From a phage: a stretch of 46,532 bases of DNA. The DNA is taken from the sequence record PZ379549.1, one strand, 5' to 3'. The notes under the pieces were generated by a model, which was not told where the DNA came from, did not search any database, and saw only the letters and a program-made list of their open reading frames with translations. Each line of letters opens with the position of its first letter. Positions within the stretch are counted from its first letter, which is position 1. This document shows, piece after piece, positions 9,172 through 42,372 of the stretch. The position numbers and the translations under genes were made by a program.

Positions 9172-9246
9172 TTTTTACTCCTCTCGTTTGCGTGAAGTAA
9201 CTATAAGCCATCCTTGGCGGCACGTCTTTAGCAAAACGTGCTATTT
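9172..9246 (-). promoter_or_regulatory. box-hairpin-(-10)-leader unit upstream of moron
   Basis: Box at 9226-9246 overlapping TerL stop (TAG), hairpin GCCAAGGATGGC, TATAGT, CACGCAAACGAGAGGAG, ATG 9171. Confidence 0.4.
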
Positions 9247-10824
9247 GATGCCAGCGAGGCGCATCATCCTCGATTTAGGGTCTTCTGCAATGTTCAGTAC
9301 CAGGTTTACGGCCATTGTCAAACAGTCTATCTGGTCATCGTGAACATGTGAATCATCTGCCGTGAATGCCGCAATCTCCGTTAGCAAGCCATTAAGCCAA
9401 GTAGCAGACTCCGGAAGGATTACGTTACCAGCTTTAATCTGCGGCAATGCACTCATTACGCGAGTCAGCTTATCGTTATCCGGAACGTACGGCTCGATAG
9501 GCGTTCGCATAACCCTTCCGGCTGATTGAATCAGGCCAATACCAGAGGCTTTCTTCTCGATGATGATTTTACGAAGGATGCCATCTATCTGATTGGATGC
9601 CCTAGCCATCTTCTCGAAATCCAATAACTCAGCCTCGAGCTCAGGAGCTTCAAATTTACCGCGCCGCTGGTCAAGCAGATAAATCTTCCCATCCTTATAA
9701 CCCCATAGCTGCATGACGCTAAAGTCGCTGTAACTTTTGGTTGTCATCGCAGTATCAAGGACCATAAACCTGTAATCGTACTTAGCTGGCGGTCGCAGAG
9801 TGTCGCTAATGCGTTGAAGCCAGTCTACGTTAATCAGGTTGCCGCCAAGTGCTACTGGTTCTTGCTGATACTGGCTAAGGAATGTATAGCTATCAGAATC
9901 CCACATTGCAACTAGGTCGTGAACAGATTCCTTGCCAGGGAAATAGCTATAGTACCTAACACCATCACGCTCAATATATTCGCTTGATAGAACGTCATCA
10001 ATGAATTGCCGCTTAATCCAGTCAGGAAGCGTGTCGACGTAATCCTCAGTTACGAGCGCCGGTATCTTAATCAAGTCGAAGCTAATACCCATACCGCCAT
10101 TCATCATGAACCACGTACTATCATTCACATGAAGGCGCTGTTGGATAGAGATAATCGGCGTCGCCTTTCCTTTTACGGAGCTCGCCCTACGAGAGCGTAT
10201 TGTATTCTTTAGCATCACGTGATTGTTAGCGCGAAAAACAGCAGAAAGCATGTCGGCTGGTTTGTCAAAATCATCTAACAGAACCGCTCCGCTATATGAA
10301 TCCGTTATATATCCACCCCTTGCGCCGGTTATTTGGCCTCCAGCAGCCTTAGATATTGACTCAAACCGAACCTTACCAGACTCATCCAGAACTTGAAGCT
10401 CATCATCCTTGCACGTACCGAACTTGCATGGGAATAACTCCTGGAACTCAACAGACTTAATCAGGTCCCGAACTCGCTTGGAGTTACGCTTAACAAGTGA
10501 GTCGGCAAACGAGATGTTCAGGTTCCTGACCTTCTTTAGCTTAACCATCGAGTAGGCCGGGAAGTGAATTGAAGCTATCTCTGTTTTTCCACTTCCTGGA
10601 GCGATGTTAATGATTGTGTCCTTGCGCTCACCAGCGATAATCTCGTCAATGATTCGACACAGGTATTTGTGATGCCAGTTAGGGATGTATCGCTCGCCCT
10701 GGGTAAGTTGGAACCACACCCGCAAGAATCCCTCGAAACTATGAGTGGATATAGCCTTAACTGCCATCTTTTCTGCTGGCGTCATTTCTTCCCATACTAA
10801 TGTTTCACTCATCCTACTCTCCAA
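9241..10824 (-). CDS. terminase large subunit
   Basis: 527-aa ORF with ATPase and nuclease-like halves; immediately upstream of portal module. Confidence 0.85.
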   Translation of the reverse strand: MESRMSETLVWEEMTPAEKMAVKAISTHSFEGFLRVWFQLTQGERYIPNWHHKYLCRIIDEIIAGERKDTIINIAPGSGKTEIASIHFPAYSMVKLKKVRNLNISFADSLVKRNSKRVRDLIKSVEFQELFPCKFGTCKDDELQVLDESGKVRFESISKAAGGQITGARGGYITDSYSGAVLLDDFDKPADMLSAVFRANNHVMLKNTIRSRRASSVKGKATPIISIQQRLHVNDSTWFMMNGGMGISFDLIKIPALVTEDYVDTLPDWIKRQFIDDVLSSEYIERDGVRYYSYFPGKESVHDLVAMWDSDSYTFLSQYQQEPVALGGNLINVDWLQRISDTLRPPAKYDYRFMVLDTAMTTKSYSDFSVMQLWGYKDGKIYLLDQRRGKFEAPELEAELLDFEKMARASNQIDGILRKIIIEKKASGIGLIQSAGRVMRTPIEPYVPDNDKLTRVMSALPQIKAGNVILPESATWLNGLLTEIAAFTADDSHVHDDQIDCLTMAVNLVLNIAEDPKSRMMRLAGIK

Positions 10825-11890: not shown

Positions 11891-11966
11891 TGGTGTTCCG
11901 CACTGGACTCGAACCAGTAACTAAGACTTAGGAGGTCTTTGCGTTATCCTGTTACGCCAGCAGAAC
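11891..11966 (-). tRNA. tRNA-Arg (anticodon CCU, reads AGG)
   Basis: Hand-folded 76-nt cloverleaf: acceptor GTTCTGC/GCGGAAC, D-arm GCGT-AACAGGATA-ACGC, anticodon arm AAGAC-CTCCTAA-GTCTT (U33, CCT, A37), variable AGTT, T-arm ACTGG-TTCGAGT-CCAGT, discriminator A, encoded CCA. Confidence 0.8.
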
Positions 11967-12912: not shown

Positions 12913-12990
12913 ATCTCTATCTCTCTTCGTTGTTTGATGGGTTAATTATATGGCATCCATGCCTGTCATGTTTAGCAATTCGTGCTATCC
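12913..12990 (-). promoter_or_regulatory. box-hairpin-(-10)-leader unit
   Basis: Box 12971-12990, hairpin GGCATGGATGCC, ATATAATT, CCCATCAAACAACGAAGAGAGA, ATG 12912. Confidence 0.4.
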
Positions 12991-13112
12991 ATTTTATCTT
13001 CACGCTCTTTCCATAGATTCATTAGCTCGAAGTACATCATGGCAACCTCGCCAGTCTTAGCCTCATCCATCATCCGTTTAGCCCACTGGCTTGGTGTTTC
13101 GTAGTTATCCAT
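12972..13112 (-). CDS. hypothetical small protein ending ...MDSTNC
   Basis: 46-aa ORF translated by hand; last 5 codons and stop encoded by the box. Confidence 0.3.
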   Translation of the reverse strand: MDNYETPSQWAKRMMDEAKTGEVAMMYFELMNLWKEREDKMDSTNC

Positions 13113-13436: not shown

Positions 13437-13859
13437 TCAGATTTTGTTAATTTGCTCAAACTTCTCAAACCAGAAAACAACTGGATCCTCAACTATGGAG
13501 ATGAGGCCGAACCGCTCTGCCGTGCGAAAATTCATGCTGCTCTTACGCCCGCGAGCGACTTGAAGAGACACCTGTTCCCTGAACATTTCAAGGGAATAGC
13601 AAGTTTTCATGAGGTTGCATGGAGCACATGCAGGGTAAAGGTTTTCCATTCGATCAGCTTGTGGTCGATTAAACTCACCTGTCGCCTTCAGCTTGAAAGT
13701 TCCTTTCTCCGCTGACTTCATGCATACCTCAGATTTACGTAGCACCGGTTCAACATGGTCAGCATGCCAGCCTTTCTCAGGTAGTTCACACCCACAATAA
13801 GCGCAGCGACCACCGAACTTGCCCTTCAACTCTTCCCTTTGAGATTTGCTTAATTTCAT
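13437..13859 (-). CDS. HNH endonuclease (classic CxxC...HxxH...N...CxxC type)
   Basis: CAYCGCEL...HADHVEP...NLYPACAPCN motifs. Confidence 0.7.
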   Translation of the reverse strand: MKLSKSQREELKGKFGGRCAYCGCELPEKGWHADHVEPVLRKSEVCMKSAEKGTFKLKATGEFNRPQADRMENLYPACAPCNLMKTCYSLEMFREQVSLQVARGRKSSMNFRTAERFGLISIVEDPVVFWFEKFEQINKI

Positions 13860-14258: not shown

Positions 14259-14335
14259 ATCTATACTCCATCTCGTTGTCGATGTGGTAATTATGCCGGA
14301 TTTCTCCGGCAATTGTTTAGCAATTCATGCTATTC
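14259..14335 (-). promoter_or_regulatory. box-hairpin-(-10)-leader unit
   Basis: Box 14315-14335, hairpin GCCGGAGAAATCCGGC, ATAATTAC, CACATCGACAACGAGATGGAG. Confidence 0.4.
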
Positions 14336-14482
14336 ACCGATTTCATCACGAAGAACATAACACTCAACACCCCCTCCAAGAACGTCCAGCTGAGATTTTG
14401 CATCTTCGTAACACTCATAAGCCCGAATATGCTTAACGCTGTTGAATTTTCCCGTATAGTATGTGTGAACGTAATAAATCAT
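14330..14482 (-). CDS. hypothetical small protein
   Basis: 50-aa ORF; stop TAG lies inside the box. Confidence 0.3.
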   Translation of the reverse strand: MIYYVHTYYTGKFNSVKHIRAYECYEDAKSQLDVLGGGVECYVLRDEIGE

Positions 14483-14942: not shown

Positions 14943-15017
14943 ATCCTCTTTTGCTTTGCTTCAATAAGGCCACTATATCAAATGGCCTTGCGGAAGGTTT
15001 AGCAATTCGTGCTATTC
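14943..15017 (-). promoter_or_regulatory. box-hairpin-(-10)-leader unit
   Basis: Box 14998-15017 abutting stop of 15016-15201, hairpin AAGGCCA..TGGCCTT, TATAGT. Confidence 0.4.
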
Positions 15018-15201
15018 AAAACTTAACATCAATTATGACTTCAACCATCTCCTGCCCAAGCCGGTAGGAGTCGCCCCAAAGAAGTAGTCCCATAAACTCA
15101 TCCTTACTAAAAGTGTTGGCATTTACAGTTCTAAGATAGCCACGATGGATAACAGTATCGCCAATCTTAACTTCGCTCTTATGTACCATTTTAGTTTTCA
15201 T
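15016..15201 (-). CDS. hypothetical protein
   Basis: 61-aa ORF. Confidence 0.4.
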   Translation of the reverse strand: MKTKMVHKSEVKIGDTVIHRGYLRTVNANTFSKDEFMGLLLWGDSYRLGQEMVEVIIDVKF

Positions 15202-15445: not shown

Positions 15446-15530
15446 TTTCGTTTTCCTTTGTGCCTCTCGTTTCGATGAGATAATTATGCCATCCATGGCA
15501 TTATATGCGTTAGGCAAAAAGTGCTATTTC
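15446..15530 (-). promoter_or_regulatory. box-hairpin-(-10)-leader unit
   Basis: Variant box 15510-15530, hairpin GCCATGGATGGC, ATAATTAT, CTCATCGAAACGAG. Confidence 0.4.
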
Positions 15531-16755: not shown

Positions 16756-16830
16756 GAATAGCACTTTTTGCTAATGCACAATCATTAGTAAGTTGCTACT
16801 ATGTATTCATCGAAACGGTGCTGGACTCTG
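16756..16830 (+). promoter_or_regulatory. box-(-10)-leader unit at head of rightward small-ORF cluster
   Basis: Variant box 16756-16776, then TATGTATT, CATCGAAACGG. Confidence 0.35.
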
Positions 16831-17555: not shown

Positions 17556-17759
17556 ATGAAACTTCTTTGCACTAACATAATTAAAGACTTTAACGACGCC
17601 TTCAATAAGGGCTCTGAATACAACGCTACCGAGTTTAAAGATGATATGTGCCTTGTTACCGGCGAACGTCCACACAAGCATCACGACACGTTCCAGGCGC
17701 TTAAATGCCTTGATTACGTAATCATCCACGGCATCGCAACTTTTAAGGTGATTGAATAA
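17556..17759 (+). CDS. hypothetical protein
   Basis: 67-aa ORF. Confidence 0.4.
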   Translation: MKLLCTNIIKDFNDAFNKGSEYNATEFKDDMCLVTGERPHKHHDTFQALKCLDYVIIHGIATFKVIE

Positions 17760-17923
17760 TGCTTTTACCATCTGATATAAACTATTTCGATCTGGAAATA
17801 ATTAGTGCTTACAGCGGAAAGGGTTGGCCTTGCGGGGACTGGTTTAACGAGGACCTGCTTGAGTCTCACGAGATTATGTTGAAGGCAATTGAGAAGGCCA
17901 GAAAAAATAGCACTAATTGCTAA
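17759..17923 (+). CDS. hypothetical small protein ending ...KNSTNC
   Basis: 54-aa ORF translated by hand; C-terminus and stop encoded by box. Confidence 0.3.
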   Translation: MLLPSDINYFDLEIISAYSGKGWPCGDWFNEDLLESHEIMLKAIEKARKNSTNC

Positions 17924-17982
17924 AACTCACCGCCACGGATGGCGTATATTTACTCCATCGAAACGAAAGAGAGCAAGAGATC
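17906..17982 (+). promoter_or_regulatory. box-hairpin-(-10)-leader unit
   Basis: Box 17906-17924, hairpin CGCCACGGATGGCG 17931-17944, TATATT 17945-17950, TACTCCATCGAAACGAAAGAGAG. Confidence 0.45.
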
Positions 17983-18143: not shown

Positions 18144-18533
18144 ATGACTACTACGATAACCAAAAATTTCATTAGCAACGACAACAAGCTATTTAAAGCT
18201 CGCGTTAAAAAGATTCACCAGTGGGTTAACGGTGTCGCTGAGGAAGTTGAATTTGAGCAAATCAAAAAAGACGGCAAATGGATCAACCTGGAAGAACGTG
18301 GAAAATACATTAAAACCAAAACTCTTTACTGCACAAAGGTTAACCATAAGTCTGGCGTTAAGAAAGACTTCAAAGAAGGTAAGCGATACCAGGTCAACAT
18401 GCATAGCGGACTTGGTCAGTCAGCTGGATACATTTACGATGAAGATGGCAACGCCTGGCAGCTATATCGCAGCGAAGATGTTGGCTTTTATACGTTGTGT
18501 GAAACTTACCACTTTGAGGCTCAATACAAATGA
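18144..18533 (+). CDS. hypothetical protein
   Basis: 129-aa ORF. Confidence 0.45.
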   Translation: MTTTITKNFISNDNKLFKARVKKIHQWVNGVAEEVEFEQIKKDGKWINLEERGKYIKTKTLYCTKVNHKSGVKKDFKEGKRYQVNMHSGLGQSAGYIYDEDGNAWQLYRSEDVGFYTLCETYHFEAQYK

Positions 18534-18700
18534 AATTATACATTGTAAGTGGTTGCACACACTATGATGGAAGCGAAGTGATTGCCGCTTTCGATGAAGA
18601 ATTCAAAGCACAGGAGTTTAAATATAACAAAGAAATATCTTCAGAAAATCACTTTGACTACTACAAGATAGATTGCATCTTACTAAATAGCACTAATTGA
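18530..18700 (+). CDS. hypothetical small protein ending ...LNSTN
   Basis: 56-aa ORF translated by hand; ATGA overlap with upstream stop. Confidence 0.3.
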   Translation: MKLYIVSGCTHYDGSEVIAAFDEEFKAQEFKYNKEISSENHFDYYKIDCILLNSTN

Positions 18701-18760
18701 TAATGCATTATAAGCGGCTATTGATATAATGGCCGCTCAGAAACAATGCGGAGAGAAGTA
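18686..18760 (+). promoter_or_regulatory. box-hairpin-(-10) unit
   Basis: Variant box 18686-18703, hairpin GCGGC..GCCGC enclosing TATAAT. Confidence 0.4.
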
Positions 18761-21909: not shown

Positions 21910-22083
21910 TTAATCTGCGATAATAAATTCCACCAAAGAGCCATCAATCGGCGCAAGGATGTGAGTCATATCGTCACCGTAAACTTTGTAGTAACCGTCA
22001 CCTAGAGACTCTGCGCTGTACGGCTGGTTTTCGGTGAACGGCAGTGTCTTTGAGTTGTTTTTAACGCAGTATAATTTAGTCAT
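21910..22083 (-). CDS. hypothetical small protein
   Basis: 57-aa ORF translated by hand, GAGGA RBS, downstream of box unit. Confidence 0.3.
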   Translation of the reverse strand: MTKLYCVKNNSKTLPFTENQPYSAESLGDGYYKVYGDDMTHILAPIDGSLVEFIIAD

Positions 22084-22160
22084 TTTTGAATCCTCTGTTG
22101 TTTTCGATGTAGTAATTATGCCGGATTACTCCGGCGATTGTTTAGCAATTCGTGCTATTT
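22084..22160 (-). promoter_or_regulatory. box-hairpin-(-10)-leader unit
   Basis: Box 22140-22160 (encodes kinase C-terminus NSTNC), hairpin GCCGGAttacTCCGGC 22120-22135, ATAATTAC, CATCGAAAACAACAGAGGA. Confidence 0.45.
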
Positions 22161-22696
22161 ATTACGTGCATTACCAAAGCAGAGGTTCCATCAATATCAC
22201 CATCTACAACATGAACGTCAATTTCTCTTGCGCAGACACCGCGAATGTAGGAGCGGCTATCTCCATCAAAAGTATAGCCAGGCCTAAAAAGTCTAATCAA
22301 AGTAACTTCAACCCCTGAATCAATGAGAGTATTAATCTCGCTAGCGAAGCCACCATCAGCACAGATATAGCAACCATCACCAAGTGATTGCGCTAGCCTT
22401 TTACCGAAAACATCATCACCAAAGACTGGCTTCATAACTGACTCACTAATCCAAATCATAAATTCACGAACCGTCATTCCACCAAGAAATTCATGTGGTG
22501 ATTCTTTGTACTCTCGGTCATCGTAATTCTTAATAAATTCATCAAACTCATCGCTTGATAGTATTCCTTTTGCAACATTAAACATTGGTGACTTGAATGA
22601 AACCTTATCCTTGCAAATTCCAAGATTAACAATGATATCTGCAACTGTATCTTTTCCAGCACCAGGGGGTGCATTAAGGATGATTAACTTTTTCAT
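22142..22696 (-). CDS. P-loop nucleotide/polynucleotide kinase
   Basis: Walker A LNAPPGAGKDT; ATG 22696 right after upstream stop; track start is upstream alternative. Confidence 0.55.
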   Translation of the reverse strand: MKKLIILNAPPGAGKDTVADIIVNLGICKDKVSFKSPMFNVAKGILSSDEFDEFIKNYDDREYKESPHEFLGGMTVREFMIWISESVMKPVFGDDVFGKRLAQSLGDGCYICADGGFASEINTLIDSGVEVTLIRLFRPGYTFDGDSRSYIRGVCAREIDVHVVDGDIDGTSALVMHVINSTNC

Positions 22697-22697
22697 T

Positions 22698-23171
22698 TTA
22701 TTCTCCGTGAGATTCGCAGTCTTTTGGTAATTCTTTATATTCACAAACTGACATTACAGTATATCCGCAATTCCTTAGGTGACTGATAACATTAGGATTA
22801 TCCTCAAAGATTATCACACTTGCTTTGTCACCATTACACAAATCATTTAGCCACATCTCTTTAATGATATAGTCATTTCTGTTATCCAATCTACTCCTCA
22901 TATATATTCCATCATAATTAATATTATTATACTGAAGCCATTCAAGCGTCATACATTCGACTTCGTCACTTCTTGAAGTCATGATGTAAACTGGCGATAA
23001 CTCAGCTAACGCATTCATCATGTTTATCATTGGAATTATCGGTGAATCTCCAGAACAGGCTCTATTGTAATCACTCCAACTTGAAGTCAAGTGAAGGTCA
23101 CTAGATGGTAAGAGGTGGCTTCTATGTTCATTGTTAGCAATAGTTCCATCAATATCAAACACGTAAATCAT
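22698..23171 (-). CDS. HAD-superfamily phosphatase
   Basis: N-terminal DxDGT motif (VFDIDGT); adjacent and co-oriented with kinase. Confidence 0.55.
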   Translation of the reverse strand: MIYVFDIDGTIANNEHRSHLLPSSDLHLTSSWSDYNRACSGDSPIIPMINMMNALAELSPVYIMTSRSDEVECMTLEWLQYNNINYDGIYMRSRLDNRNDYIIKEMWLNDLCNGDKASVIIFEDNPNVISHLRNCGYTVMSVCEYKELPKDCESHGE

Positions 23172-23250
23172 TACAACTCCTCATCTCGTTATCGTTTATT
23201 CATTTTGCCTCAATCCTTTGAGGCTTTATTAACAAAAAATGCTATTACTT
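23172..23250 (-). promoter_or_regulatory. box-hairpin-leader unit (variant box)
   Basis: AATAGCATTTTTTG box 23231-23250, 7-bp-stem hairpin GCCTCAA-tcct-TTGAGGC 23207-23224, leader TAAACGATAACGAGATGAGGAG. Confidence 0.35.
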
Positions 23251-24378
23251 AAACATTTCAGGTCGGCAAGTGAATCGACCAACTTCACCGTACTCTGAGC
23301 TATAGATAATTACTGAGGCCTGACGATAAGAGCGATACCCTCCGTTTGCGCTGTACGCATCTTTAGCACCCAACTGACCGTGTGACTCATCAATTCCAAG
23401 ATTACCCTCAGTAACCGTCTGATGATGATAATGGCCACTATGTGTATAAACGTATTCAGCATTACCAAATGCTTTGCGATGGTCGCGCGCAAGAGTTGAA
23501 AGACGAGTGTCAGGCTTTCGCAATTCATGACCATGGCAGTAACCCAACAATGTTTTACCAAACTCCGTCACGTGAAGAGCGGCTGGTGAGGCATCAACAT
23601 TTACACGAGGCTCATCCATGTAGAAGGCAGCCATTGCAGCTCGAAGCCAAATCATCCCAGAAAGGTCGTGGTTGCCTGGTATAATCTGAACCTCAACCTC
23701 TTTATGCTTGTCAAGCATCTTACTGACGGCGCGGCGAGTTGCACGAACAGCTACGTAGACAAGTTTATGATAACGGCTATCTTGATCAAGTACGTGCTTG
23801 CTGGTTGGAGTTACAGCTTCCATTCCATCCGAGTGAAGGAAGTCTCCACCAATCAGTAATACGGCTTTTGATGAATTCGGGGCCTTAGCAACTGCATAAT
23901 CAAAGTATTGGTTAAGCACTCGCTCTGCAATTTCTGTACTGTAGTTCTCCCCACACTCTGCATGGTGAGCCATTGCGCCAATATGCATATCAAACACGGG
24001 GTAGAGGCTCAAGGTGTCCTCATAGCTTGATTCACTGAGTGGTTTCGGAGTCTCTCGAGGGAGCTCATCTGTAAGCGCCTGAACAATCTGCTGAAGCATC
24101 TCTTCTTGTTTCTGTTCGTCGATGGAAGTTTTAACCCAGCGAAGCTTCTCATTACCATCCGCATCAATCATTGTTGAAGTGCCTTTAACAAGATAGCCAT
24201 CAGGAACTAGCTTCTTGATGCCTTCATTACCATGCCCAACCCCACTCTTAGCCAACTTGCTACGACGAAGCTCAACGTTTCGAATGTTCATTCCGTACTT
24301 CTCTGCAATCGCCTTGTTAGTCAGGCCGTTTTTCAGTTCTTCGATCAACTGCTCGGTGGTAATTTTTGCTGCTGCCAT
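23245..24378 (-). CDS. calcineurin-like metallophosphoesterase with N-terminal HTH
   Basis: HTH-like LTNKAIAEKYGMNIRNVELRRSKL; phosphoesterase motifs DMHIG, GGDFLH, GNHD, GHE, GHYHH. Confidence 0.55.
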   Translation of the reverse strand: MAAAKITTEQLIEELKNGLTNKAIAEKYGMNIRNVELRRSKLAKSGVGHGNEGIKKLVPDGYLVKGTSTMIDADGNEKLRWVKTSIDEQKQEEMLQQIVQALTDELPRETPKPLSESSYEDTLSLYPVFDMHIGAMAHHAECGENYSTEIAERVLNQYFDYAVAKAPNSSKAVLLIGGDFLHSDGMEAVTPTSKHVLDQDSRYHKLVYVAVRATRRAVSKMLDKHKEVEVQIIPGNHDLSGMIWLRAAMAAFYMDEPRVNVDASPAALHVTEFGKTLLGYCHGHELRKPDTRLSTLARDHRKAFGNAEYVYTHSGHYHHQTVTEGNLGIDESHGQLGAKDAYSANGGYRSYRQASVIIYSSEYGEVGRFTCRPEMFK

Positions 24379-25505: not shown

Positions 25506-25590
25506 TTTCTTTCTCTCTTTGTGTGTTTCGTTTCGATGAGTTGATAATACACCAACTCACCAATTCGTCTTTAGCAATTCGTGCTATTTT
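25506..25590 (-). promoter_or_regulatory. box-(-10)-leader unit
   Basis: Box 25570-25590 overlapping upstream stop TAG, TATTAT, CTCATCGAAACGAAACACAC. Confidence 0.4.
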
Positions 25591-26007
25591 CTTATCATCT
25601 CTGCGAATGCCGCAAGAAAACCCTCTCTTCCATAAGCCACCGCTGCGAAACCGCCTGATTCCCTTACGCTTTTTAGGAATGACTTTTGCTCATTGCTAAC
25701 TGGGCTTGCTTGCGTTTTACCAGCCCTCTTTAACTCTATGGCGCCAAATGGATAACCGCCACGCAATGACTCAGGTATCAGAAATAAGCAGTCTGACACA
25801 CCTTTGAGAAGCCCCTTGGCTTGGTCTTTTCTTGCTTGACCAATGCTCTTTTTATTGATTCGTTAACTCGTGTGCCAGTAAACAATCTGCGGATAGTTGA
25901 TATTTCACCCAATCAGAGCAGAAGATTTGTTCATCGTCTTCCTTTGGGCATGACTTCACCGGTCCGCCATAGAACTCGAGGTAATCACCTTTGTCTGTGA
26001 TTTTCAT
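25584..26007 (-). pseudogene. VRR-NUC-type nuclease gene with about 3 frame changes
   Basis: ATG 26007 with GGAGG RBS gives EDDEQIFCSDWVKYQ; continuation YPQIVYWHT, NESIKRALVKQEKTKPRGFSK and GVSDCLFLIPESLRGGYPFGAIELKRAG...NEQKSFL lie in three other frames within about 150 nt. Confidence 0.45.
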
Positions 26008-26008
26008 A

Positions 26009-26263
26009 TCAATCCTCCATCGTAAATGATTTGTTGGCGATAATATCTTGCGACTTCTGATTCTTGCGGTGCGTAATCCTTAGCGGCGCACGGAAAAGAT
26101 GTGCATTTGTCATAATCATTTTAGCATTACGCAATCTGCCAATCCTAAAAGCCTCAGTCCTGTTCTCGATGTGAGTTGAGCAAAACGCCTTCCATTTGAC
26201 AGAACAAACACGATGGTCTGACTCCGGGAAGAATGTTTCATAAGCTCGGAATCTTGTCACCAC
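26009..26263 (-). CDS. hypothetical ORF (possible frame-shifted helicase tail or separate small gene)
   Basis: 84-aa ORF overlapping helicase 3' end. Confidence 0.25.
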   Translation of the reverse strand: MVTRFRAYETFFPESDHRVCSVKWKAFCSTHIENRTEAFRIGRLRNAKMIMTNAHLFRAPLRITHRKNQKSQDIIANKSFTMED

Positions 26264-28006
26264 TGTGAGCCATTACCTCATATGAAGCAACGATCCCTGA
26301 CTGGTTCTTTGTTAACCCAATCTTGAAGTCATAAACTCGCAACCAGTCCCCCTTACGATACATTTTTCCTGATAACTTAGCATTCGGGTCTATGAGCATC
26401 TCACCACAGCATCTGCAATTCTTAGCTGCAATATCATTCTTCTCACCGCATCCTTTCTTAATGATAGCTTTGGTCTGTGGGTCCGCTATATCTTCACACA
26501 GTCTAAACTGAAAGAAGTGCTCACAGCGCTTCCAGTCAATTACGTTATTGCAGCGCCTGGCTAATTGAGAGTTCACATAAGAGCATGCCGGACAGATTCT
26601 TGGCTTATCACCACGCTTTCTTGCTGACCTAAATTTCTGGTCTTGTACCTCTTCTATAATTGGGTCGAAGTAAAGTTCAGCCATATCATCAAGCGTTCCA
26701 GCAAAATCAAGAACAACATGGTCATCTTTTACCATTCCAGCTTCTTTGTGCTTCTTCTTAAGGATACGCATACCACGACCAAGCAACTGAATGAGTAGAG
26801 TAATGCTACCAACCTTCCTCAGGATAATGCTTGTATCCCACGGGGGGCAGTTTACGCCAGTTGTGAGGCAACCAATCTGAAATATGAACTTATATTCTCC
26901 GTTGGCTGCCTTCTCAAGTATCTCTCTACGCTTCTTCTCACCAGTGGAGTTGGTAACTATCGCCCAAGTAACACCTTCTAGGAAGTGCGGCTGCCGCCTC
27001 CATCGCAATGCTGTTTGCCAGCGCAAGTTACCAATGCAGCATTCCTTGTTTCCATAAACTTAGCAGCAAATCCCATTATCTTTTGTGTCATCGTTTGGTT
27101 TTCGTGAATCTTTGCAGCCATCGCATCCATTTCTTTCTTGCTGAAGTCCTTAACCCCATCACTTCCATCAGGAGTGAACTCACTAAGGTCGTAGCCCAAA
27201 TCACCAACTTCACCGTAGACAGTAGGAACAACGAACCCCAAGTCAACAAGGTAGCTGGTTGGCACTTGCATTACAGTTTTGCGCCAGAATCCACGGACAT
27301 TTGGGTTACTAACTACAATGTGGTCGTTGTTACGGTACGGGCTGCCAGTCAAACCGAAGATGCGTAGTTCGCGACCATACTTCTCTTTGCAGCGTCTCTT
27401 CATCTCAGTAATGATTAGCGTGTACTGCGCACGACCAGTTCCGAGCAATCCGGTATTCACTCCATCCTTGAAAACCATCTCACCCTTCTTCGTGCTCATC
27501 TGCTCGAATGTTTCCTCGTTCTCTTCAGCTTCTACGATATCCATATGGTCAACCATATGACATTCATCTATCGCAATAACGGCAGGAACATAGTCACCAA
27601 GGCCCTTAAACAAGCCGTTAGCAGCCGTGCCCTCACTAGCCACTATGGTTGGGTAGTAAACTGATTTAACGTTAAGGCCAGCGCAATAGACGCTATTACG
27701 GATGCCGAAGTTACGAAGCTCTTCAGCGTTCTGGCTGATAATTTCTGACTGGCGAGAAAGCACCATGTAAGGAAGCCCAAGCTGTTCCATGCGCTTTCCA
27801 ATCATGGCAAGAATAATTGTCTTACCAGCAGATACAGACAGGTCTGCGATGAATGGGGCCTCGTACTTTCCAATAGCCTTCCCAATTGCATCAAATGTCA
27901 CACACTGGAATGGGTAAGGAGTGATTTCTCCAAACTGGTAATCTCTCTGAATCTGCTTAATCTTCTCTTGATCGAAGTTGGCTACTAAGCGCTCTACTGG
28001 AAGCAT
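26238..28006 (-). CDS. SF2 DEAH-box helicase with C-terminal Cys-rich region, one frame change near 26978-27026
   Basis: N-part ORF 26978-28006 has Walker A SAGKT and DECH; C-part ORF 26238-27026 has motif VI QLLGRGMR; the two overlap in different frames. Confidence 0.65.
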
Positions 28007-28090
28007 TTTAAATATCCCGACATTTTGTTAGTTCGTTGCATTGCTGTATAATAACAACTATCGACCCTATTGTTTAACAAAAAATGCTAT
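28007..28090 (-). promoter_or_regulatory. box-(-10)-leader unit upstream of helicase
   Basis: Variant box 28073-28090, TATTAT, CAGCAATGCAACGAACTAAC. Confidence 0.35.
28024..28051 (+). promoter_or_regulatory. sigma70-like promoter for HTH gene
   Basis: TTGTTA (28024-28029), 16-nt spacer, TATAAT (28046-28051). Confidence 0.35.
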
Positions 28091-28102
28091 TGAGGTAATG
28101 AG

Positions 28103-28492
28103 ATGTGTGAAATTGACAAGCGAACTATCAACGGCAATAACGGAACCATCCGCACGCAAGACAAGAAACAGCGCAAACGACCGTCAGGCTACTACGTATT
28201 GAAAGATGAAGTAAAGGCTGGGCTAAGAGCTCGTCTGGAGATGGTTCTTGACTTCTACGGCACGAAGGCCAATATCGCCAAGCAGTTAAATGTATCTCAC
28301 CAGACTGTAGAACAATGGTTTGATCGCGGTATGATTTCGGCTCGAGGCGCCCAGCGAGCACATAATGCGTACAAGAGAAATAAGGGAGGGTTCCGAGCTA
28401 CTTTCTGCCGACCAGACCTGCAATTTGACGGTAACGGTAAGCCTCTGACGCTTACGATGCAAGAAGCGCCACATGCTACGCGTGGTTACTGA
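28103..28492 (+). CDS. HTH DNA-binding protein (candidate regulator)
   Basis: HTH-like GTKANIAKQLNVSHQTVEQWF; first gene of rightward unit; a +1 frame continues 36 codons past the stop. Confidence 0.45.
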   Translation: MCEIDKRTINGNNGTIRTQDKKQRKRPSGYYVLKDEVKAGLRARLEMVLDFYGTKANIAKQLNVSHQTVEQWFDRGMISARGAQRAHNAYKRNKGGFRATFCRPDLQFDGNGKPLTLTMQEAPHATRGY

Positions 28493-28585
28493 GGCTGAAC
28501 TAGCAACTAAAGCCACCTTGTCGACTCGTGGCGCAAGAATAAGATTGCCAACGAAGCCGCACGAAAAGCTAAAGAGTAAATAATT

Positions 28586-30051: not shown

Positions 30052-30115
30052 TTGCCTGAAAGATGGTAGAATGAATTTTGGCAATTAGTGCTACTTTACA
30101 AATGGAGACTTTACA

Positions 30116-33807: not shown

Positions 33808-33884
33808 TAACTATCTCTCTTTCGTTTAAGTGGGGCAATCATACCTCACCTTTTGATTTTGTCTTTAGCAATTAGTGCTATTTT
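33808..33884 (-). promoter_or_regulatory. box-(-10)-leader unit upstream of erf
   Basis: Box 33863-33884 containing exonuclease stop TAG, TATGAT, CACTTAAACGAAAGAGAGA. Confidence 0.4.
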
Positions 33885-34849
33885 AGAAGTTCTTGATACT
33901 GCTTACTTACCCACTCAGGAATCATCAAATCTTGCTCTGTAATCCCATTGCTATACCCAGGCCATACATCAAGCTCCTTGCACTGTTTGTATGTTGCTAG
34001 TGCCTCACAATATTGTAAACGACCAATGCGAAGCTGTTCATCTGTAAGCGTGTAGCTCATTGGTAAGTAAGGCTCCGTTTTTTCCTGCGCCAGAAGTCGA
34101 ACCACAACCTTACGCTTCTCGTTAAATGCCTTCACGAACAAGTCACGCTGAAGGCTCATTTTGCACAGGTATCCATGGTCATAAGCTGACTTGCCAAATC
34201 CTCTCGGGCTTGCGTCCGCCGTCGTCTTGTAGTCAGTAATGAAAACCACGCCATCAACAACATCCACGTGATCAAGCCTAACCTTAACACCACACCCAAG
34301 AATCTCACCAAAGATTGATAGCTCTTTCTGTGCTGTTGGTGAGTTAATAATCGCATCGTAAGCTGGGATATTAGTAAGAACCTCGCGCATTGAGATTACC
34401 TTATCGTAATCTTTCGCAGTAACGAGCTCTTTGCCACTAATTAACGCCTCAGCGCTCTCCTGCTGCTCAATTAACCATTTAACAGGCCAATCCTCACCAG
34501 ATTTATACATCATCTCCACGAGCTCGCTATATCCCTTCCCTGACGTGCCTGAAACTCCAACTTTTTTAAGCGCTGCGGATAAAGCCGTTTGGCTAGTAAT
34601 CAATCCTTCCACTTCGTCAAAGTCAGTAGCTCGCATGTATGTTGAGTCAAATACCTCGCGCTCTAGCATCATGCAGTGACTTAGTGTGCCAAATTTAAGT
34701 GCTGCGCTAGAGTTATTGCGCTGCTTAAACTTCCATTTAGCTGGTGAGGTAGCAAGAATCTCAGCCAGTGAAGAGCCAGAGATATGGTCTTGCTCTTCGT
34801 GATAGGATTCATTTGTTAGCTCGTCGTTCGTATAAACTTTAAATGTCAT
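33878..34849 (-). CDS. PD-(D/E)XK-type recombination exonuclease
   Basis: 323-aa ORF upstream of erf with D...ITDYKT nuclease-like motif. Confidence 0.5.
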   Translation of the reverse strand: MTFKVYTNDELTNESYHEEQDHISGSSLAEILATSPAKWKFKQRNNSSAALKFGTLSHCMMLEREVFDSTYMRATDFDEVEGLITSQTALSAALKKVGVSGTSGKGYSELVEMMYKSGEDWPVKWLIEQQESAEALISGKELVTAKDYDKVISMREVLTNIPAYDAIINSPTAQKELSIFGEILGCGVKVRLDHVDVVDGVVFITDYKTTADASPRGFGKSAYDHGYLCKMSLQRDLFVKAFNEKRKVVVRLLAQEKTEPYLPMSYTLTDEQLRIGRLQYCEALATYKQCKELDVWPGYSNGITEQDLMIPEWVSKQYQELLK

Positions 34850-35515: not shown

Positions 35516-35591
35516 CATAGCACTAATTGCTAAAACTGATCCGCAAAACCGGGTATAGTTAGCAACACAAACAACGAGAGAGAATTTTAAA
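35516..35591 (+). promoter_or_regulatory. box-(-10)-leader unit upstream of methyltransferase
   Basis: Box 35516-35535, TATAGT, CACAAACAACGAGAGAG. Confidence 0.4.
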
Positions 35592-36282
35592 ATGGTTATC
35601 TGGTCTTTATTTGATGGTTCTGGTCTGGCGGTAAAGGATTGGGCTGAAGCTGGCCACACTTGCTACTGTTTCAACTTTGATGAGTCTGACCACGGCAGCT
35701 ACAGTGACTTAAATGCAAAGGTTGAGCATGAGAACATCACATACGTTAACGCATGGATAGATGCTGACTTCGATTTTGATGTGAAACCTGATTTTATAAT
35801 GGCGTTCCCTCCATGCACTGACTTAGCCGTGAGCGGATCAAGACACTTTGAACGCAAGTGTACTAGCTAACCCTAACTTCCAAATTGAAGCTGCGGAGAC
35901 GTGCAAGATTGCTTTTAATCTTGCTGAAAAATACGGAGTACCATACATGATCGAGAACCCAATCAGCGTACTGTCATCACTTTGGCGAAAACCTGATAAC
36001 ACCTTCCACCCATATGAATACGGAGGCTATTTGCCGGAAGATGATTTACACCCGTTTTTTAGCGACCTAATAAAGCCAAAAGACGCATATCCCAAGAAGA
36101 CATGCATTTGGTATGGCAATGGGTTTAAATGGCCAGAGGCAATTCCAGTGGACGTTAACGGTGGATTCTCTGACCAATACAAGAAGCTAGGCGGGAAGAG
36201 CAATAAGACAAAGGTAATTCGCAGCCTAACTCCTCGCGGTTTTGCAAAAGCCGTCTTCATTGCAAATAGCACCAATTGCTAA
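35592..36282 (+). CDS. C5-cytosine DNA methyltransferase-like, one frame change near 35848-35870
   Basis: Motif I LFDGSGLA, PC motif FPPCTDLAVSG, ENV-like MIENP; two overlapping ORFs in different frames. Confidence 0.5.
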
Positions 36283-36350
36283 AGACAAATCTCAAGGATG
36301 AGATATCATTACTCCATTGAAACGAAACACACCTTCTAAGGAATACGAAA
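36264..36350 (+). promoter_or_regulatory. box-hairpin-(-10)-leader unit upstream of cor-like gene
   Basis: Box 36264-36284 encoding MTase C-terminus NSTNC and stop, hairpin ATCTCAaggaTGAGAT, TATCAT, ACTCCATTGAAACGAAACACACC. Confidence 0.4.
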
Positions 36351-37588: not shown

Positions 37589-40500
37589 TTACCACACTCC
37601 AACTACAACCCTTCCACCATTCGGTAAATTAACTGTAATTCCATTATTGTTAATCTGAACAGTGTTGTTGGTTCCGTTAAACGCAAAGTTGCCGTTACTT
37701 GCGTACAGACTACCCCTTACAGTTGCATTGTTAAGTTCCGCACTGCCTGACTTATCAATGGCCCAACCCTGAGAACCAGCCACGTAGTTATTAGATTGAA
37801 TCCGGTTACCAATCTTCGCGTTAGTGATTGAACCATCCTGAATCACTGCGCTTTGAATGAATACCTGATTACCTTCAACTACGAAAGGCAATGACCACTG
37901 ACCGGATCCAGAGCTAATGCCGTTACTGATTGCTAACCTGTTAGCATCAAAGATGACCTGACTACGAACATTGCCATCAGAACCAGTTAGCTCCATACTC
38001 ATGCCAGAACTGTACTCAACGCCATTGTATTTGAGGCCAAGTTTAATCCCGTACTGAGCACCAATTGAATCGGCAGTAACGTAAGTGTCCAACTTCTCAT
38101 TTAACGCAGCCTCATTATCACCTAGCCTTGCAGATAAAGCAGTGTCCGCAGTGGTCCTTGCTTGCGTCTCTTCCGCTAGCGCCGTATCAATCCTTGTCAA
38201 TGAAGCTACAATCTCATCATCAATCTGCGCCTTAAGCTGCGTCAGAGCCTCTACGCGAGCCCTTTCTTCATCGGCGATAAGATTCACAGCCTGAACAAAT
38301 TCGGCCTTCCTCTTGCCGTTTTCCTTCGTCATTCTACGCACGTCACCATCATTAGCCAGGGCGTTCTCAATTATTGATTCCGCTTGCGCCTGAATAGCTC
38401 CGTTTGACTCAATGGCATTCTGTTGGAGATACTTGAACCCATCTGAGTTTTCTATATCAACCTTAATATCACCAATGATTGACGACACATCATCGCTTGC
38501 CATACCCCTTACAAAATCAGTCCATGGTGAGACGTTACCAATCTTGTCAATCAGTCGCGCCCTGTACCAGATGACCTTTCCAGCAGGAAGTGTAGTATGC
38601 CAGTACTCGTAACTCGGGTAAGGCACCAGAGTCAGAAGGCTAGCATTCTCTGGTGTATAAGTACCATCACCATTGTCGGCTACTTGCTGCAATTCAGTGT
38701 ATGACGTATCGGCTGAGTTTTCAGGAAATCCCCACTTAACCCTAATGCCGAATATTTCATCATCTGAAGCGGTGATTACTGTAGGTGAAGAAGGGGTCCC
38801 AATCTTGCCTGTGAGGCTTACTGAAACAATGTCAGACCATGCGGATACGTTTTCAGTATCAGAAACGGCCCTTACGCGAACCTGGTAAATTCCGGCATAG
38901 ATACCTTCAATATCAACCTCTGTGCTTGCTGTGCGCGGCACGTTAATCCAGTTTCCGTTCTCCTTGCGCCACTGTACCGTGTAGGTTTTCGCGTACTGAA
39001 CCTTGTCCCACGTGATTACCATTGTCTCAACTGATAAACCCTGAACAACCTTACTGTAACTGCTAACCTGAACATTCTCGGGTGCCAGTAATGTATCTGG
39101 CTCCACGATTGAAGTTGGCCTGTCCTGAATGTTTACGCCGTAATCAATCTCGTCGTATTTGTTCGGGTCGTACTCAACTGCGGTAATCGTGTAACCAAAC
39201 GCATCATCTCCATCGCTGTCTGCTTTTTGAATACCGGTCACAACATATTGCTGAAGAGCAAGATTTTCCTTATCAATCGCAAATACTGTGTCAGGCTGAG
39301 GAGTAAAGCTAAACGCTGTATTAAGTTGCAGCGTCATACCATCTTCAGATACAGATGCAATGGTCCTGTACTCCGGCATTCCATCAGGCTTGTTTATTAG
39401 AATCCTGTCGCCAGCAGTAGCATCAATCTTAAATGGCACAAAAACTTGCAACCCACTTACTGACTCGATACGACCAGAAAGGTTAAGGGTGTAGTTGCTA
39501 GACCATGCCTGGTCATTAACTGCAATAACCTCACCAATCATTGGAATCATACCTTCCAGACCAGTAGTGAAACTAATAGTCTCGCTGCGAATGTTCGTCT
39601 TTAATAACCAGCGCCCGCGGCGGTTTGCCTCACTCCTGCGAGTACATCCAATAGCTGTAAGGTCGACCGGGTTGTAACCAAAACGCCTTGTTGCCTCTAA
39701 CTCGAATACTGGCTCAACATCCTGTTGGTATGAGTTTTCAACGTCATCAAACTGAACGTTGGCAACCGTGTAAAGTGACTTATCGCTACCAAATGTACGG
39801 TTGAACAATCCATCAACAACGTTGTCATTGGTGAATACGTACGATGGTTGACGCGGCTTATCGACAACAATCCCTATCTGCTCGCCGTCATAGAATGTCA
39901 GCCCACGGAAGATAGAGCAAATATCACGGATTACCTGATATGCTTCAACTTTCTGCTGAATGACAACATCACACAGGTAGCGCGGCTCAACTCCACCCTT
40001 ACCATCTGGAACCATCTGGTCACAGAATTGCGCCGCCTCATACAGACCCCACTTATCAATAGTAATGCCAAGCTCTCGCTGGTCAAGTCCGTAACGCTGA
40101 TTCGTCACCAAGTCGTAAAGAACCCACGCCGGGTTATTGGAATACGCCATCTTAAAGGTGCCGTTCCAGGTTCCGCTGTAAGTCCTTGTCTCTGGGTTGT
40201 AGTTAGTTGGAACGCGAATCAACTTCCACTTCTTCTTGATTGAAATCGTCGGGATTCCGTTAGGGAAGAGGTCAGAACTGAACTCAACGTAAACCAGCGC
40301 TGTAAGTGGGTAGCGGAATTTCGCATCAATTACTTCCTGATAGGTCGTAATTTGCATATTGTTAACCAGCGTCGAACTTTCTGAATCTGCCGTGATCTTA
40401 CGAACCCTCACCAACGCACTCGAGAACTCAGCAGGAAGGTTAACCCTGATACTTCTGTCGTACCCGCTAGTTGTCTTGCCATTAGCTACTCCGCGCGTGT

Positions 40501-41630: not shown

Positions 41631-42372
41631 TGTAATTTGCTCCTTCTGGTAAATCTTTGTGGCGAACGATTCGAACGGTACGCTCACGCCAGTAATCACT
41701 ATAGGTATCCACTTTACTCATCTTGCCGTAAAGATGGTGCAAGAACTTATTGTCTCCAATGTAGATTCCTGCGTGGTTTGTGGCCTCACTTTGAATCTGC
41801 ATCATAATCATGGAGCCAACTGGAATATCATCAGTTTCGACTAGCTCAAATCCTTCCTTAATCCAGTTGTCATCATAGATATTTTCTCCATACTCCTTGT
41901 TCCACCATGGGTAATTAACGCGGTAGTCAGCCAGTTTGACGCCGTGCTTTGCGTGGAATGACATTATCAATCCCCAGCAATCGAAGCTACCCAAACCCCA
42001 CGGTCTTCCTGCTAGCGGCATATCAACTGGTTCAAGGATTCGCAGATCTCCTTCCGGGTAACTAACGATGACATATGGAATCTCGCACTCATTGCAACTG
42101 CATATGTCTGCCGGGCTAGGCCTTGTAGTTGCACCATCTCCAGTGTGTGAGTGAGCTACGTAAACAATTGACTCGCTGTAGCCAAGATTAAAGACAATAT
42201 TCATGTACTCACTGGCGTCAAGAATGAACTCATTTTCAGGGTCTTTCGATGCGTTGGTGATTCTATGGTATTTTTGTGCCATGCCTTTTTGGGTGACTAC
42301 GCCGCAGCACTCGTTTGGGTAATCCTCTTTTGCGTGGCGCATGATTTCTAGTTTAACTTTTGGTGTAAGCAT
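41614..42372 (-). CDS. tail assembly protein (lambda gpK-like, MPN/JAB plus NlpC/P60)
   Basis: JAB/MPN-like HAKEDYPNECCGVV...AHSH and NlpC/P60-like Cys/His region; ATG 42372 with AAGGAG RBS. Confidence 0.7.
   Translation of the reverse strand: MLTPKVKLEIMRHAKEDYPNECCGVVTQKGMAQKYHRITNASKDPENEFILDASEYMNIVFNLGYSESIVYVAHSHTGDGATTRPSPADICSCNECEIPYVIVSYPEGDLRILEPVDMPLAGRPWGLGSFDCWGLIMSFHAKHGVKLADYRVNYPWWNKEYGENIYDDNWIKEGFELVETDDIPVGSMIMMQIQSEATNHAGIYIGDNKFLHHLYGKMSKVDTYSDYWRERTVRIVRHKDLPEGANYNAETD

Follow-up and report, generated by a model that had tools for sequence, protein, structure and literature searches.

A phased DNA repeat of T1-like phages supplies stop codons and C-terminal tails to unrelated upstream genes

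Why should unrelated proteins of one phage share their last residues? The question is raised by a short DNA element, here called the box, in a phage genome of 46,532 nucleotides (nt; sequence record PZ379549.1), the whole of which is referred to below as the window. A copy of the box at 22142-22159 on the minus strand, reading AATAGCACGAATTGCTAA, encodes the last codons and the stop of an open reading frame (ORF) that resembles a deoxynucleoside monophosphate (dNMP) kinase. A first-pass annotation of the sequence had noticed that five unrelated proteins end in a box-encoded STN(C) tail and that several others take their stop codon from a box, and had proposed that a DNA element imposed the shared ending, with strong selection on the site and tight coupling of the upstream stop to a downstream promoter. 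Our analysis indicates that the box probably belongs to a composite promoter cassette, of which it forms the conserved upstream segment, and that the tails are a passive by-product of selection on that DNA combined with compaction of the genome.

Scanning the window with the pattern AATAGCACNAATTGMTAA, allowing up to 2 mismatches, gave 13 box matches, compared to an average of 0.01, and never more than 1, in shuffled sequences. These matches take the form AATAGCAC-N-WWTTG(C/T)TAA and are co-oriented with the local genes on the same strand. All nine hand translations in the first-pass annotation were reproduced on re-translation. Five ORFs end in an NSTN(C)-type tail encoded by frame 1 of the box, which reads AAT AGC ACN AAT TGC TAA; in one of them (ending ...LLNSTN-stop) a TTGATAA variant makes a TGA at box position 13. 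The TAG at box positions 3-5 stops four further ORFs, namely those of TerL, the exonuclease, the VRR-NUC remnant and ORF 14330-14482 (Table 1), all as originally read. We found in addition that frame 3 fixes the final residue too, an NAA codon preceding the TAG and giving K, E or Q; that the TGA of ORF 15016-15201(-) overlaps box position 1; and that ORF 23245-24378(-) ends TAA-TAG, which occupies positions 0-5 of the 23229-23246 box. Of the 14 boxes in the window that are linked to a promoter, about 11 contain or touch the stop at which the upstream ORF ends, where by our own arithmetic random placement of about 75 genes would lead to about 0.4. The stop overlap is thus real and far beyond chance, and the description of a shared tail was correct, except that STNC is just one of three outcomes set by the reading frame.

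Comparison with related phages revealed that the tails switch with the frame or the absence of the box and not with the protein family. Proteins of the dNMP-kinase family end in NSTNC in the window and in phage AN_ECEAS, in NSTNR in TR1, where one box base is changed, and in NSTN-stop in OzMSK, and their orthologues in the left early region of T1 and TLS enter a box in frame 3 and stop on its TAG as ...INK-stop or ...FLK-stop. The methyltransferase ends in IANSTNC in the window and in LANQK-stop in TLS, and in Rtp, TLS and TR1 neither box nor tail is present in the orthologues of ORF 12972-13112. TerL ends ...AGIK-stop with the box TAG in four phages and at an ordinary stop, with no box, in TR1 and OzMSK. 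The exonuclease stops on the box TAG in the window and, in Rtp, OzMSK and TLS, on a TAA that overlaps position 1 of the box. The ends of the RefSeq coding sequences (CDSs) of Rtp and T1 coincide with the same box stop positions, and the PHROG family profiles end short of the tails.

A larger sample was assembled by an exact 19-mer search of IMG/VR, which returned 120 stretches, all on contigs of a size typical of T1-like phages; together with eight genomes it comprised 1.34 Mb and 590 promoter-linked boxes, for each of which the closest ORF upstream with 40 or more codons was taken. Stops fell on the TAG at position 3 in 231 cases, the TAA at position 16 in 125 and the TGA at position 13 in 6, with 39 more at position -1 and 29 at position 0, so that about 73% of the upstream ORFs stop in or against a box. 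The tails seen in five proteins of this one phage are correctly described, and they are a property of the whole Drexlerviridae. The 395 unique junctions collapsed into 163 protein families, which use frame 3 in 96 cases, frame 1 in 62 and frame 2 in 24, and more than one frame is used by 17 of the 163 families. STNC and STFC are the commonest C-termini among all ORFs of this DNA. In the 89 distinct ORFs ending in xST[NF]C, the serine codon is AGC in 88 and never TCN, the stop is TAA in all 89, and the fourth-position asparagine of the tail is AAT in 61 of 61. None of the 89 xST[NF]C tails lies on DNA other than a box.

Constraint on the stop triplets was examined in boxes picked without them, by the core CAC-N3-TTG, the -10 hexamer and CATYRA. 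The TAG and the TAA were intact in 94-100% of these boxes whether the upstream gene uses the first, the second or neither, which places the constraint on the DNA and makes the peptide a by-product. Together with the frame-switching orthologues and the frozen synonymous codons, this result bears out the proposals that the site is under strong selection and that the DNA element, rather than protein function, dictates the shared tail.

The case for the box as a regulatory site is one of sequence geometry. A -10-like hexamer lies 20-22 nt downstream in 131 of the 151 box copies found in eight genomes, and exactly 21 nt downstream in 107, so the stop is physically tight against the putative promoter, as had been suggested. 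The consensus from these 107 units is AATAGCAC-T/G-WW-TTG-C/T-TAA-A. The hexamer is TATAAT-like, with an information profile (A2 and T6 at 2.0 bits) that is that of the σ70 -10 element, and a G at -14 is moderately conserved. No -35 element is conserved 16-18 nt upstream of the box-linked -10, where only TAAA is conserved, and canonical -35/-10 promoters are not enriched (38 compared to 40.8±6.6 in shuffled sequences). Past the -10 come (T)AC(C/T)CATCGAAACGA, then a GAGG-type ribosome-binding site, then the start codon. The (T)AC(C/T)CATCGAAACGA motif, a conserved putative start-of-transcript motif about 7-20 nt past the -10 (e.g. 22097-22113), is present in most units of Rtp-like phages, T1 and TLS. 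Where a start was found, as for 11 of the window's promoter-linked boxes, the distance from box start to start codon, on the strand of the downstream ORF, ranges from 74 to 86 nt; at the locus considered here the downstream ORF begins at 22083, 76 nt from the start of the box. A relaxed scan found 18 boxes in the window, and the window, AN_ECEAS, IME542, Rtp and T1 hold 17-23 each.

If transcription starts 7 nt past the -10, the box would span about -51 to -34 with its centre near -42, the position of a class II activator site. UP elements are A/T-rich tracts between about -60 and -38 without invariant G/C positions. In this position the box would overlap the proximal subsite of an UP element, and the TTTTTGTTAAAA flavour of the box is A/T-rich, but ATAGCAC and TTG of the box carry 1.6-1.9 bits at G/C positions, unlike UP elements. 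Several known elements were compared and rejected. TTG(C/T)TA was rejected as a -35 because its spacer to the -10 is 22 nt, and a σ54 promoter (TGGCAC-N5-TTGC, its GG and GC exactly 10 nt apart) because the box, TAGCAC-N3-TTGC, lacks the first G and is 2 nt short in spacing; a -10 of σ70 type comes after it instead. The MotA box of phage T4, (a/t)(a/t)(a/t)TGCTT(t/c)A, is centred at -30 and lies 11-13 nt from the -10; it was rejected on spacing, since TTGCTAA ends 21 nt before the -10. The box arms TAGCA-N5-TGCTA (positions 3-17) may fit the outer positions of the Escherichia coli Lrp consensus from SELEX (systematic evolution of ligands by exponential enrichment), YAGHAWATTWTDCTR, which is a tentative lead.

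One box lies in a divergent control region (28025-28103), in which a canonical TTGTTA-16-TATAAT promoter on the plus strand precedes the gene of a Cro-like helix-turn-helix (HTH) regulator. This promoter overlaps the box promoter of the helicase operon on the minus strand face to face, -10 against -10. The regulator belongs to the conserved T1 gp23/Rtp52 family (PHROG 2856), and a sequence search of the PDB with it gave marginal matches to Cro and winged-HTH proteins only. Such a layout would suit a factor that acts on the boxes and regulates its own gene, which we offer as a lead.

An inverted repeat is almost always found between the box and the start site. The mean minimum free energy is -8.5 kcal/mol, compared to -3.7 for shuffled sequences and -4.4 for random genomic 36-mers, and 85% of 120 units have a folding energy of -4 kcal/mol or below. 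In 68 of the 120 units the arms lie on either side of the -10, in 24 they lie upstream of it, and in the window the hairpin starts about 4-9 nt past the box. Among 200 distinct stems, internal transition mismatches on the sense strand comprised 72 G·T and 7 A·C (p=1e-14) with near-balanced base composition, an asymmetry expected from G·U pairing in sense-strand RNA. Compensatory changes were also found between relatives, with the arms GGTGAGTTG/CAACTCATC in the window replaced by GATGAAGTG/CACTTCATC in TR1. The G·T excess and the compensatory changes indicate selection on pairing in the sense-strand RNA. Because the hairpin is upstream of the start site of its own unit, it must act in transcripts arriving from the upstream gene, in which it may be a terminator, an attenuator or a stabiliser of the 3' end. 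Four annotated rho-independent terminators of T1 lie inside box units and consist of the hairpin and the -10 of these units (Table 1), so that DNA interpreted here as a promoter has elsewhere been annotated as a terminator. From the sequence features and by analogy with the PeSLs discussed below, we infer that the unit may have both roles.

The boxes also coincide with boundaries of gene cassettes. In blastn comparisons of the window with seven relatives, 37 of 179 homology ends fell within 60 nt of a box unit, compared to 7.9±2.8 at random; collapsed across genomes, 8 of 80 distinct breakpoint sites were in a box or at most 3 nt from one, compared to 0.7 expected. The 5' edge of the box at 18686-18703 is a homology breakpoint with five relatives, and the homology with IME542 and Rtp spans exactly from this edge, at 18686, to the box edge at 22159. 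Adjacent to the latter is the phosphatase/kinase cassette, of which the box at 23229-23246 is the left boundary; IME542 and Rtp lack it at this site, and a polynucleotide-kinase gene is instead present in the left early region of Rtp, T1 and TLS. Similarly, IME542 and TR1 have a single box where the window has a box, a promoter, the methyltransferase and another box. These junctions suggest that recombination between boxes drives cassette exchange.

The proposed mechanism, which we consider likely overall, would begin with a composite cassette placed before most early and middle gene groups of the Drexlerviridae. Read 5' to 3', this cassette would consist of the box, AATAGCAC-N-WW-TTG-Y-TAA(A), a 21-nt spacer, a TATAAT-like -10, the start-of-transcript motif, a Shine-Dalgarno sequence and the start codon. 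Host σ70 RNA polymerase (RNAP) would use the -10, and the box may replace the -35 by binding a factor, for which a phage HTH regulator, a host protein and the C-terminal domain of the RNAP α subunit are candidates. Selection on the DNA would fix the box and, with no DNA to spare, the upstream gene would run into it and stop at the first in-frame stop: in frame 3 at the TAG of positions 3-5, with K, E or Q as last residue; in frame 1 at the TAA of positions 16-18 or the TGA at 13, with the tail (N/D)ST(N/F)C; and in frame 2 at a T(A/G)A that ends on box position 1. Any gene that lands upstream of a box would be terminated by it, and the shared pentapeptide would be a passive by-product with no function of its own. 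The boxes would then mark the gain, loss and movement of cassettes between related phages. Compaction together with box-bounded cassette exchange explains the pattern without the functional coupling of stop and promoter that the first-pass annotation had implied. Several points weigh against this account. TTG(C/T)TA, 22 nt from the -10, is too far away for a normal -35, and the box would have to be read in some other way; the searchable literature yielded no mapping of transcript starts or 3' ends in T1-like phages; the related sequences are not independent, and phylogenetic inflation of the counts remains even with duplicates and families collapsed; the homology breakpoints may partly reflect BLAST extending through a conserved island, or module boundaries that lie between genes anyway; frameshifts in the window make some ORF calls unreliable, although the tails themselves are corroborated by relatives; and the uneven use of the frames, with frame 3 ahead of frame 1 and frame 1 ahead of frame 2, is not predicted by a purely passive model alone.

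That unevenness bears on the idea that the stop triplets are themselves selected, the box being a multi-frame translational stop that releases ribosomes before the hairpin and promoter, with the distance from stop to hairpin tuning read-through. The box contains stops in two frames and a further stop overlaps its position 1, nearly three quarters of upstream ORFs use them, the hairpin a few nt past the box behaves as sense-strand RNA, and the use of frame 3, in which the ribosome would not cover the hairpin, is about double that of frame 1. However, the TAG and TAA are equally conserved where no ORF is upstream or another frame is used, and neighbouring non-stop positions (GCAC, TTG) are equally invariant, so that a stop function is not needed to explain the conservation; moreover, no frame-2 stop is found inside the box. 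We regard selection for the stops as unlikely. That the NSTNC tail is a functional peptide, for instance a tag for degradation or localisation, with selection acting on the protein and conservation of the DNA following from it, is very improbable and already largely refuted: the abundance of STNC and STFC among C-termini is what such a peptide might produce, but synonymous codons are frozen, orthologues exchange the tail for K, E or Q or lose it with the frame or presence of the box, the box is equally conserved where it is untranslated, and its distance to the -10 is fixed. That the tails are an artefact of spurious ORFs or wrong translations is scarcely credible. Several genes of the window do contain frameshifts and some of the small ORFs have no known function, but the translations were re-computed, the ORFs match PHROG or Pfam families, and independently annotated CDSs in Rtp, T1, TLS, IME542 and OzMSK end at the same box positions.

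The remaining alternatives concern what the box does as DNA. It might act like a stoperator, as a site for a repressor or roadblock, or be dedicated to recombination, with the -10 belonging to an independent promoter and the coding overlap being the same by-product. Consistent with this are the asymmetry of the site, its approximately 20 co-oriented copies per genome, like those of the L5 stoperators, the conserved HTH regulator gene with a box in its own 5' untranslated region (5'UTR), the homology breakpoints at box edges, and the box at 30078-30095, which lies between two genes without a -10. In opposition, the lack of a -35 and the strict phasing of 107 of 151 copies at 21 nt from the -10 argue for one composite promoter, the literature consulted calls T1-like phages virulent, and the annotations of the genomes examined include neither a repressor nor an integrase; we hold this alternative to be improbable. 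The genes that flank the minus-strand site at 30078-30095, a primase and a tail fibre gene, are both on the plus strand, and a strong GC hairpin with a T run is adjacent; the arrangement is conserved with a perfect box in AN_ECEAS, IME542, Rtp, TR1 and OzMSK. A bolder extension of the composite-promoter interpretation is that the units constitute an uncharacterised T1-like promoter class, in which a dedicated factor reads the box near -42 and substitutes for the -35, and in which the unit also serves as translation stop, RNA hairpin and homology patch for exchange. Candidates for the factor are the Cro-like HTH regulator (T1 gp23/Rtp52), which has a box in its 5'UTR, and a host protein. We view this extension as possible, if rather doubtful.

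A 6-kb query around the 22142 site matches Escherichia phages ES and AN_ECEAS at about 94% identity and Rtp-like and Christensenvirus phages at 76-86%, and AN_ECEAS, IME542, Rtp and TR1 are classified in the Drexlerviridae, subfamily Braunvirinae. Because of these matches to Braunvirinae relatives, we assign the window, by sequence similarity, to the Rtp group (Braunvirinae) as the genome of a T1-like siphovirus. The name of kinase given earlier to ORF 22142-22744 is backed by its match to PHROG 139, deoxynucleoside monophosphate kinase, although a Pfam search with this ORF gave no match; an internal ATG is probably its real start, a PNKP-type phosphatase is encoded by the ORF upstream, and only 4 distant loci were recovered from IMG/VR with the kinase ORF as query. 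The names TerL, exonuclease (PDDEXK, exonuclease VIII-like) and VRR-NUC (its C-terminal half) were confirmed by family searches. The methyltransferase is dcm-like as labelled, but ORF 35848-36282 is only the C-terminal piece of a frameshifted gene.

Several genes of the window are broken, and its ORF calls therefore need care. Compared to the Rtp and TLS proteins, the helicase (26009-28006) is spread over three reading frames and VRR-NUC (25587-26007) and the dcm-like methyltransferase (35565-36282) over two each, and the HTH regulator gene (28103-28576) has an in-frame stop at about 28490; these breaks reflect either assembly errors or genuine decay. ORF 13437-13859(-) matches only the C-terminal part of the HNH endonuclease PHROG 2118 (profile positions 161-272 of 301), and relatives have several HNH homing endonucleases at differing positions. 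An Rfam scan of the window found nothing besides a tRNA-Arg, with no family for the hairpins or the leader; this tRNA-Arg (CCT) is shared with TR1, and OzMSK carries a tRNA-Arg too.

Table 1. Boxes and associated features of the window, in order of position, with T1 terminators in the last row (coordinates of the T1 record).
Feature	Position	Strand	Coding use	-10 or other detail
Box	9228..9245	-	TAG (positions 3-5) is the stop of TerL, ORF 9241-10824(-), ...AGIK-stop	-10 TATAGT 9200-9205
tRNA-Arg (anticodon CCT)	11891-11966	-		Rfam
Box, GATAGCAC variant	12972..12989	-	D-S-T-N-C-stop of ORF 12972-13112(-), ...KMDSTNC-stop	-10 TATAAT 12945-12950
Hairpin	14295-14311
Box	14317..14334	-	TAG is the stop of ORF 14330-14482(-)	-10 CATAAT 14290-14295
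Box	14999..15016	-	Last base of the TGA of ORF 15016-15201 is box position 1	-10 TATAGT 14972-14977
Degenerate box AATAGCACTTTTTGCCTA, TAA lost	15511..15528	-		-10 CATAAT 15483-15488
Box heading the rightward early operon	16757..16774	+	No long ORF enters; TAG and TAA still intact
Box	17906..17923	+	N-S-T-N-C-stop of ORF 17759-17923(+), ...RKNSTNC-stop	-10 TATATT 17945-17950
Box, TTGATAA variant	18686..18703	+	TGA at 13 stops ORF 18530-18700(+)	-10 TATAAT 18725-18730
Hairpin	18712-18736
-10-like CATAAT	22115..22120	-		21 nt past the box at 22142..22159
Hairpin GCCGGA-GTAA-TCCGGC	22120..22135	-		Between box and -10; fold -11.9 kcal/mol
Box	22142..22159	-	Frame 1, N-S-T-N-C-stop of the dNMP-kinase-like ORF
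dNMP-kinase-like P-loop ORF	22142..22744	-	Tail ...VMHVINSTNC-stop	PHROG 139, E=1.5e-43
PNKP-phosphatase and dNMP-kinase cassette	22160..23228	-		Between boxes at 22159 and 23246
Box, TTTTTGTTAA flavour	23229..23246	-	Repair-exonuclease-like ORF 23245-24378 ends TAA-TAG on the box
Hairpin	25535-25562
Box	25571..25588	-	TAG is the stop of the VRR-NUC C-terminal fragment, ORF 25584-25799(-)	-10 TATTAT 25544-25549
Box of the helicase-operon promoter	28074..28091	-		Inside the 5'UTR of the divergent HTH-regulator gene (28103-)
Box-like site AGTAGCACTAATTGCCAA	30078..30095	-	Antisense to both neighbours	Without -10; beside a strong terminator hairpin
Box	33865..33882	-	TAG is the stop of the exonuclease VIII-like ORF 33878-34849(-)	-10 TATGAT 33838-33843
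Box 1 of the methyltransferase cassette	35516..35533	+		-10 TATAGT 35554-35559
Methyltransferase cassette	35534..36264	+		Promoter remainder and frameshifted dcm-like gene
Box 2 of the methyltransferase cassette	36265..36282	+	N-S-T-N-C-stop of methyltransferase ORF 35848-36282(+), ...FIANSTNC-stop	-10 TATCAT 36304-36309
T1 terminators within box units	38973-39001, 39998-40024, 41980-42007, 35930-35971			T1 record annotation

These results have practical consequences for the study of this family. The (N/D)ST(N/F)C or K, E or Q endings of many Drexlerviridae proteins are dictated by the DNA and should be disregarded in work on homology, structure or function. The boxes would also provide natural, self-terminating insertion points for engineering T1-like phages, which are used in BASEL-type collections and in therapy. 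More generally, the unexplained 21-base repeat of T1-like phages can now be cast as a testable model, that of a -35-less promoter with a box in fixed phase, a hairpin acting at the RNA level and cassette boundaries at the boxes.

Among known promoters, those of the class II CRP/FNR type, with a site at about -41.5, and the MotA-dependent promoters of T4 have a good -10, no -35 and a box over the -35 region, and the geometry of the T1-type unit is similar. The MotA box, however, is about 12 nt from the -10, in contrast to the 22 nt of TTG(C/T)TAA here, and unlike the sites of activator-dependent promoters the T1-type box is not a clear palindrome and its activator is only hypothetical. A likeness of another kind is offered by the stoperators of L5 gp71 in cluster A mycobacteriophages, which are bound by the immunity repressor of these temperate phages and block elongation (PMC9283540). 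They are short, asymmetric and strictly oriented, number more than 20 copies and occupy short intergenic spaces, and the T1-type box has a similar orientation bias; the difference is that the latter is phased to a -10, occurs in phages described as virulent and has no known binding protein.

The repeat itself has been described before. A 2024 re-annotation of phage TLS reported a 21-nt direct repeat with the consensus aaATAGCACnnnTTGnTAAAA, present in 21 copies, of which 18 were called intergenic, oriented the same way as transcription and about 76 nt upstream of start codons, with similar repeats said to occur in T1, Rtp and Rogue1 (PMC11447400). Only three σ70-like promoters were found, and the authors posed the function of the repeat as an open question, suggesting a stoperator, an enhancer-binding site or an UP element (PMC11447400). 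The window box is, to judge from its sequence, a copy of this TLS/T1/Rtp repeat, sharing with it the same letters, co-orientation, a distance of about 76 nt to the start codon, about 18-21 copies per genome and the GAA, TTT and AAA sub-types. A literature search with the box sequence itself returned nothing relevant. The TLS paper (PMC11447400) reports neither the constant distance of 21 nt to a -10 nor the hairpin, the use as stop and C-terminal coding sequence or the cassette boundaries; what is new here compared to that account is the -10 phasing, the hairpin, the coding of stops and tails, the frame statistics and the breakpoints at box edges. If the units do form a promoter class of their own, this would answer the question asked of the TLS repeat. 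As it stands, the arrangement looks less like a new mechanism than like a by-product of tight packing and cassette swapping, on a repeat that had been described before.

In its architecture, the T1-type unit appears to have its closest analogue in the PeSLs (promoter-early stem-loops) of the T4-type phages RB49, phi1, PST and nt-1 (PMC2839356, PMC4122927). Both units start with the stop codon of the upstream gene, continue with a promoter and end with a Shine-Dalgarno sequence; the stem-loop lies between the promoter elements or over the -10 in PeSLs, and upstream of or flanking the -10 in the T1-type unit. In both, many repeats are found among small accessory genes, at the junctions of insertions, deletions and replacements between close relatives. 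PeSLs differ in having a consensus σ70 -35 and -10 and an AT-rich upstream region, whereas the T1-type unit has no normally spaced -35 and instead a highly specific box of 18-21 nt. Promoter and terminator activity and mini-circles have been demonstrated experimentally for PeSLs, by reporter fusions and inverse PCR, and PeSLs mediate the shuffling of cassettes, whereas for the T1-type unit promoter and terminator roles are predicted from sequence; the lack of sequence homology between the two makes them analogues and not relatives. That such similar architecture is built from unrelated sequence suggests that composite cassettes of stop, terminator and promoter recur for the shuffling of accessory genes in virulent phages.

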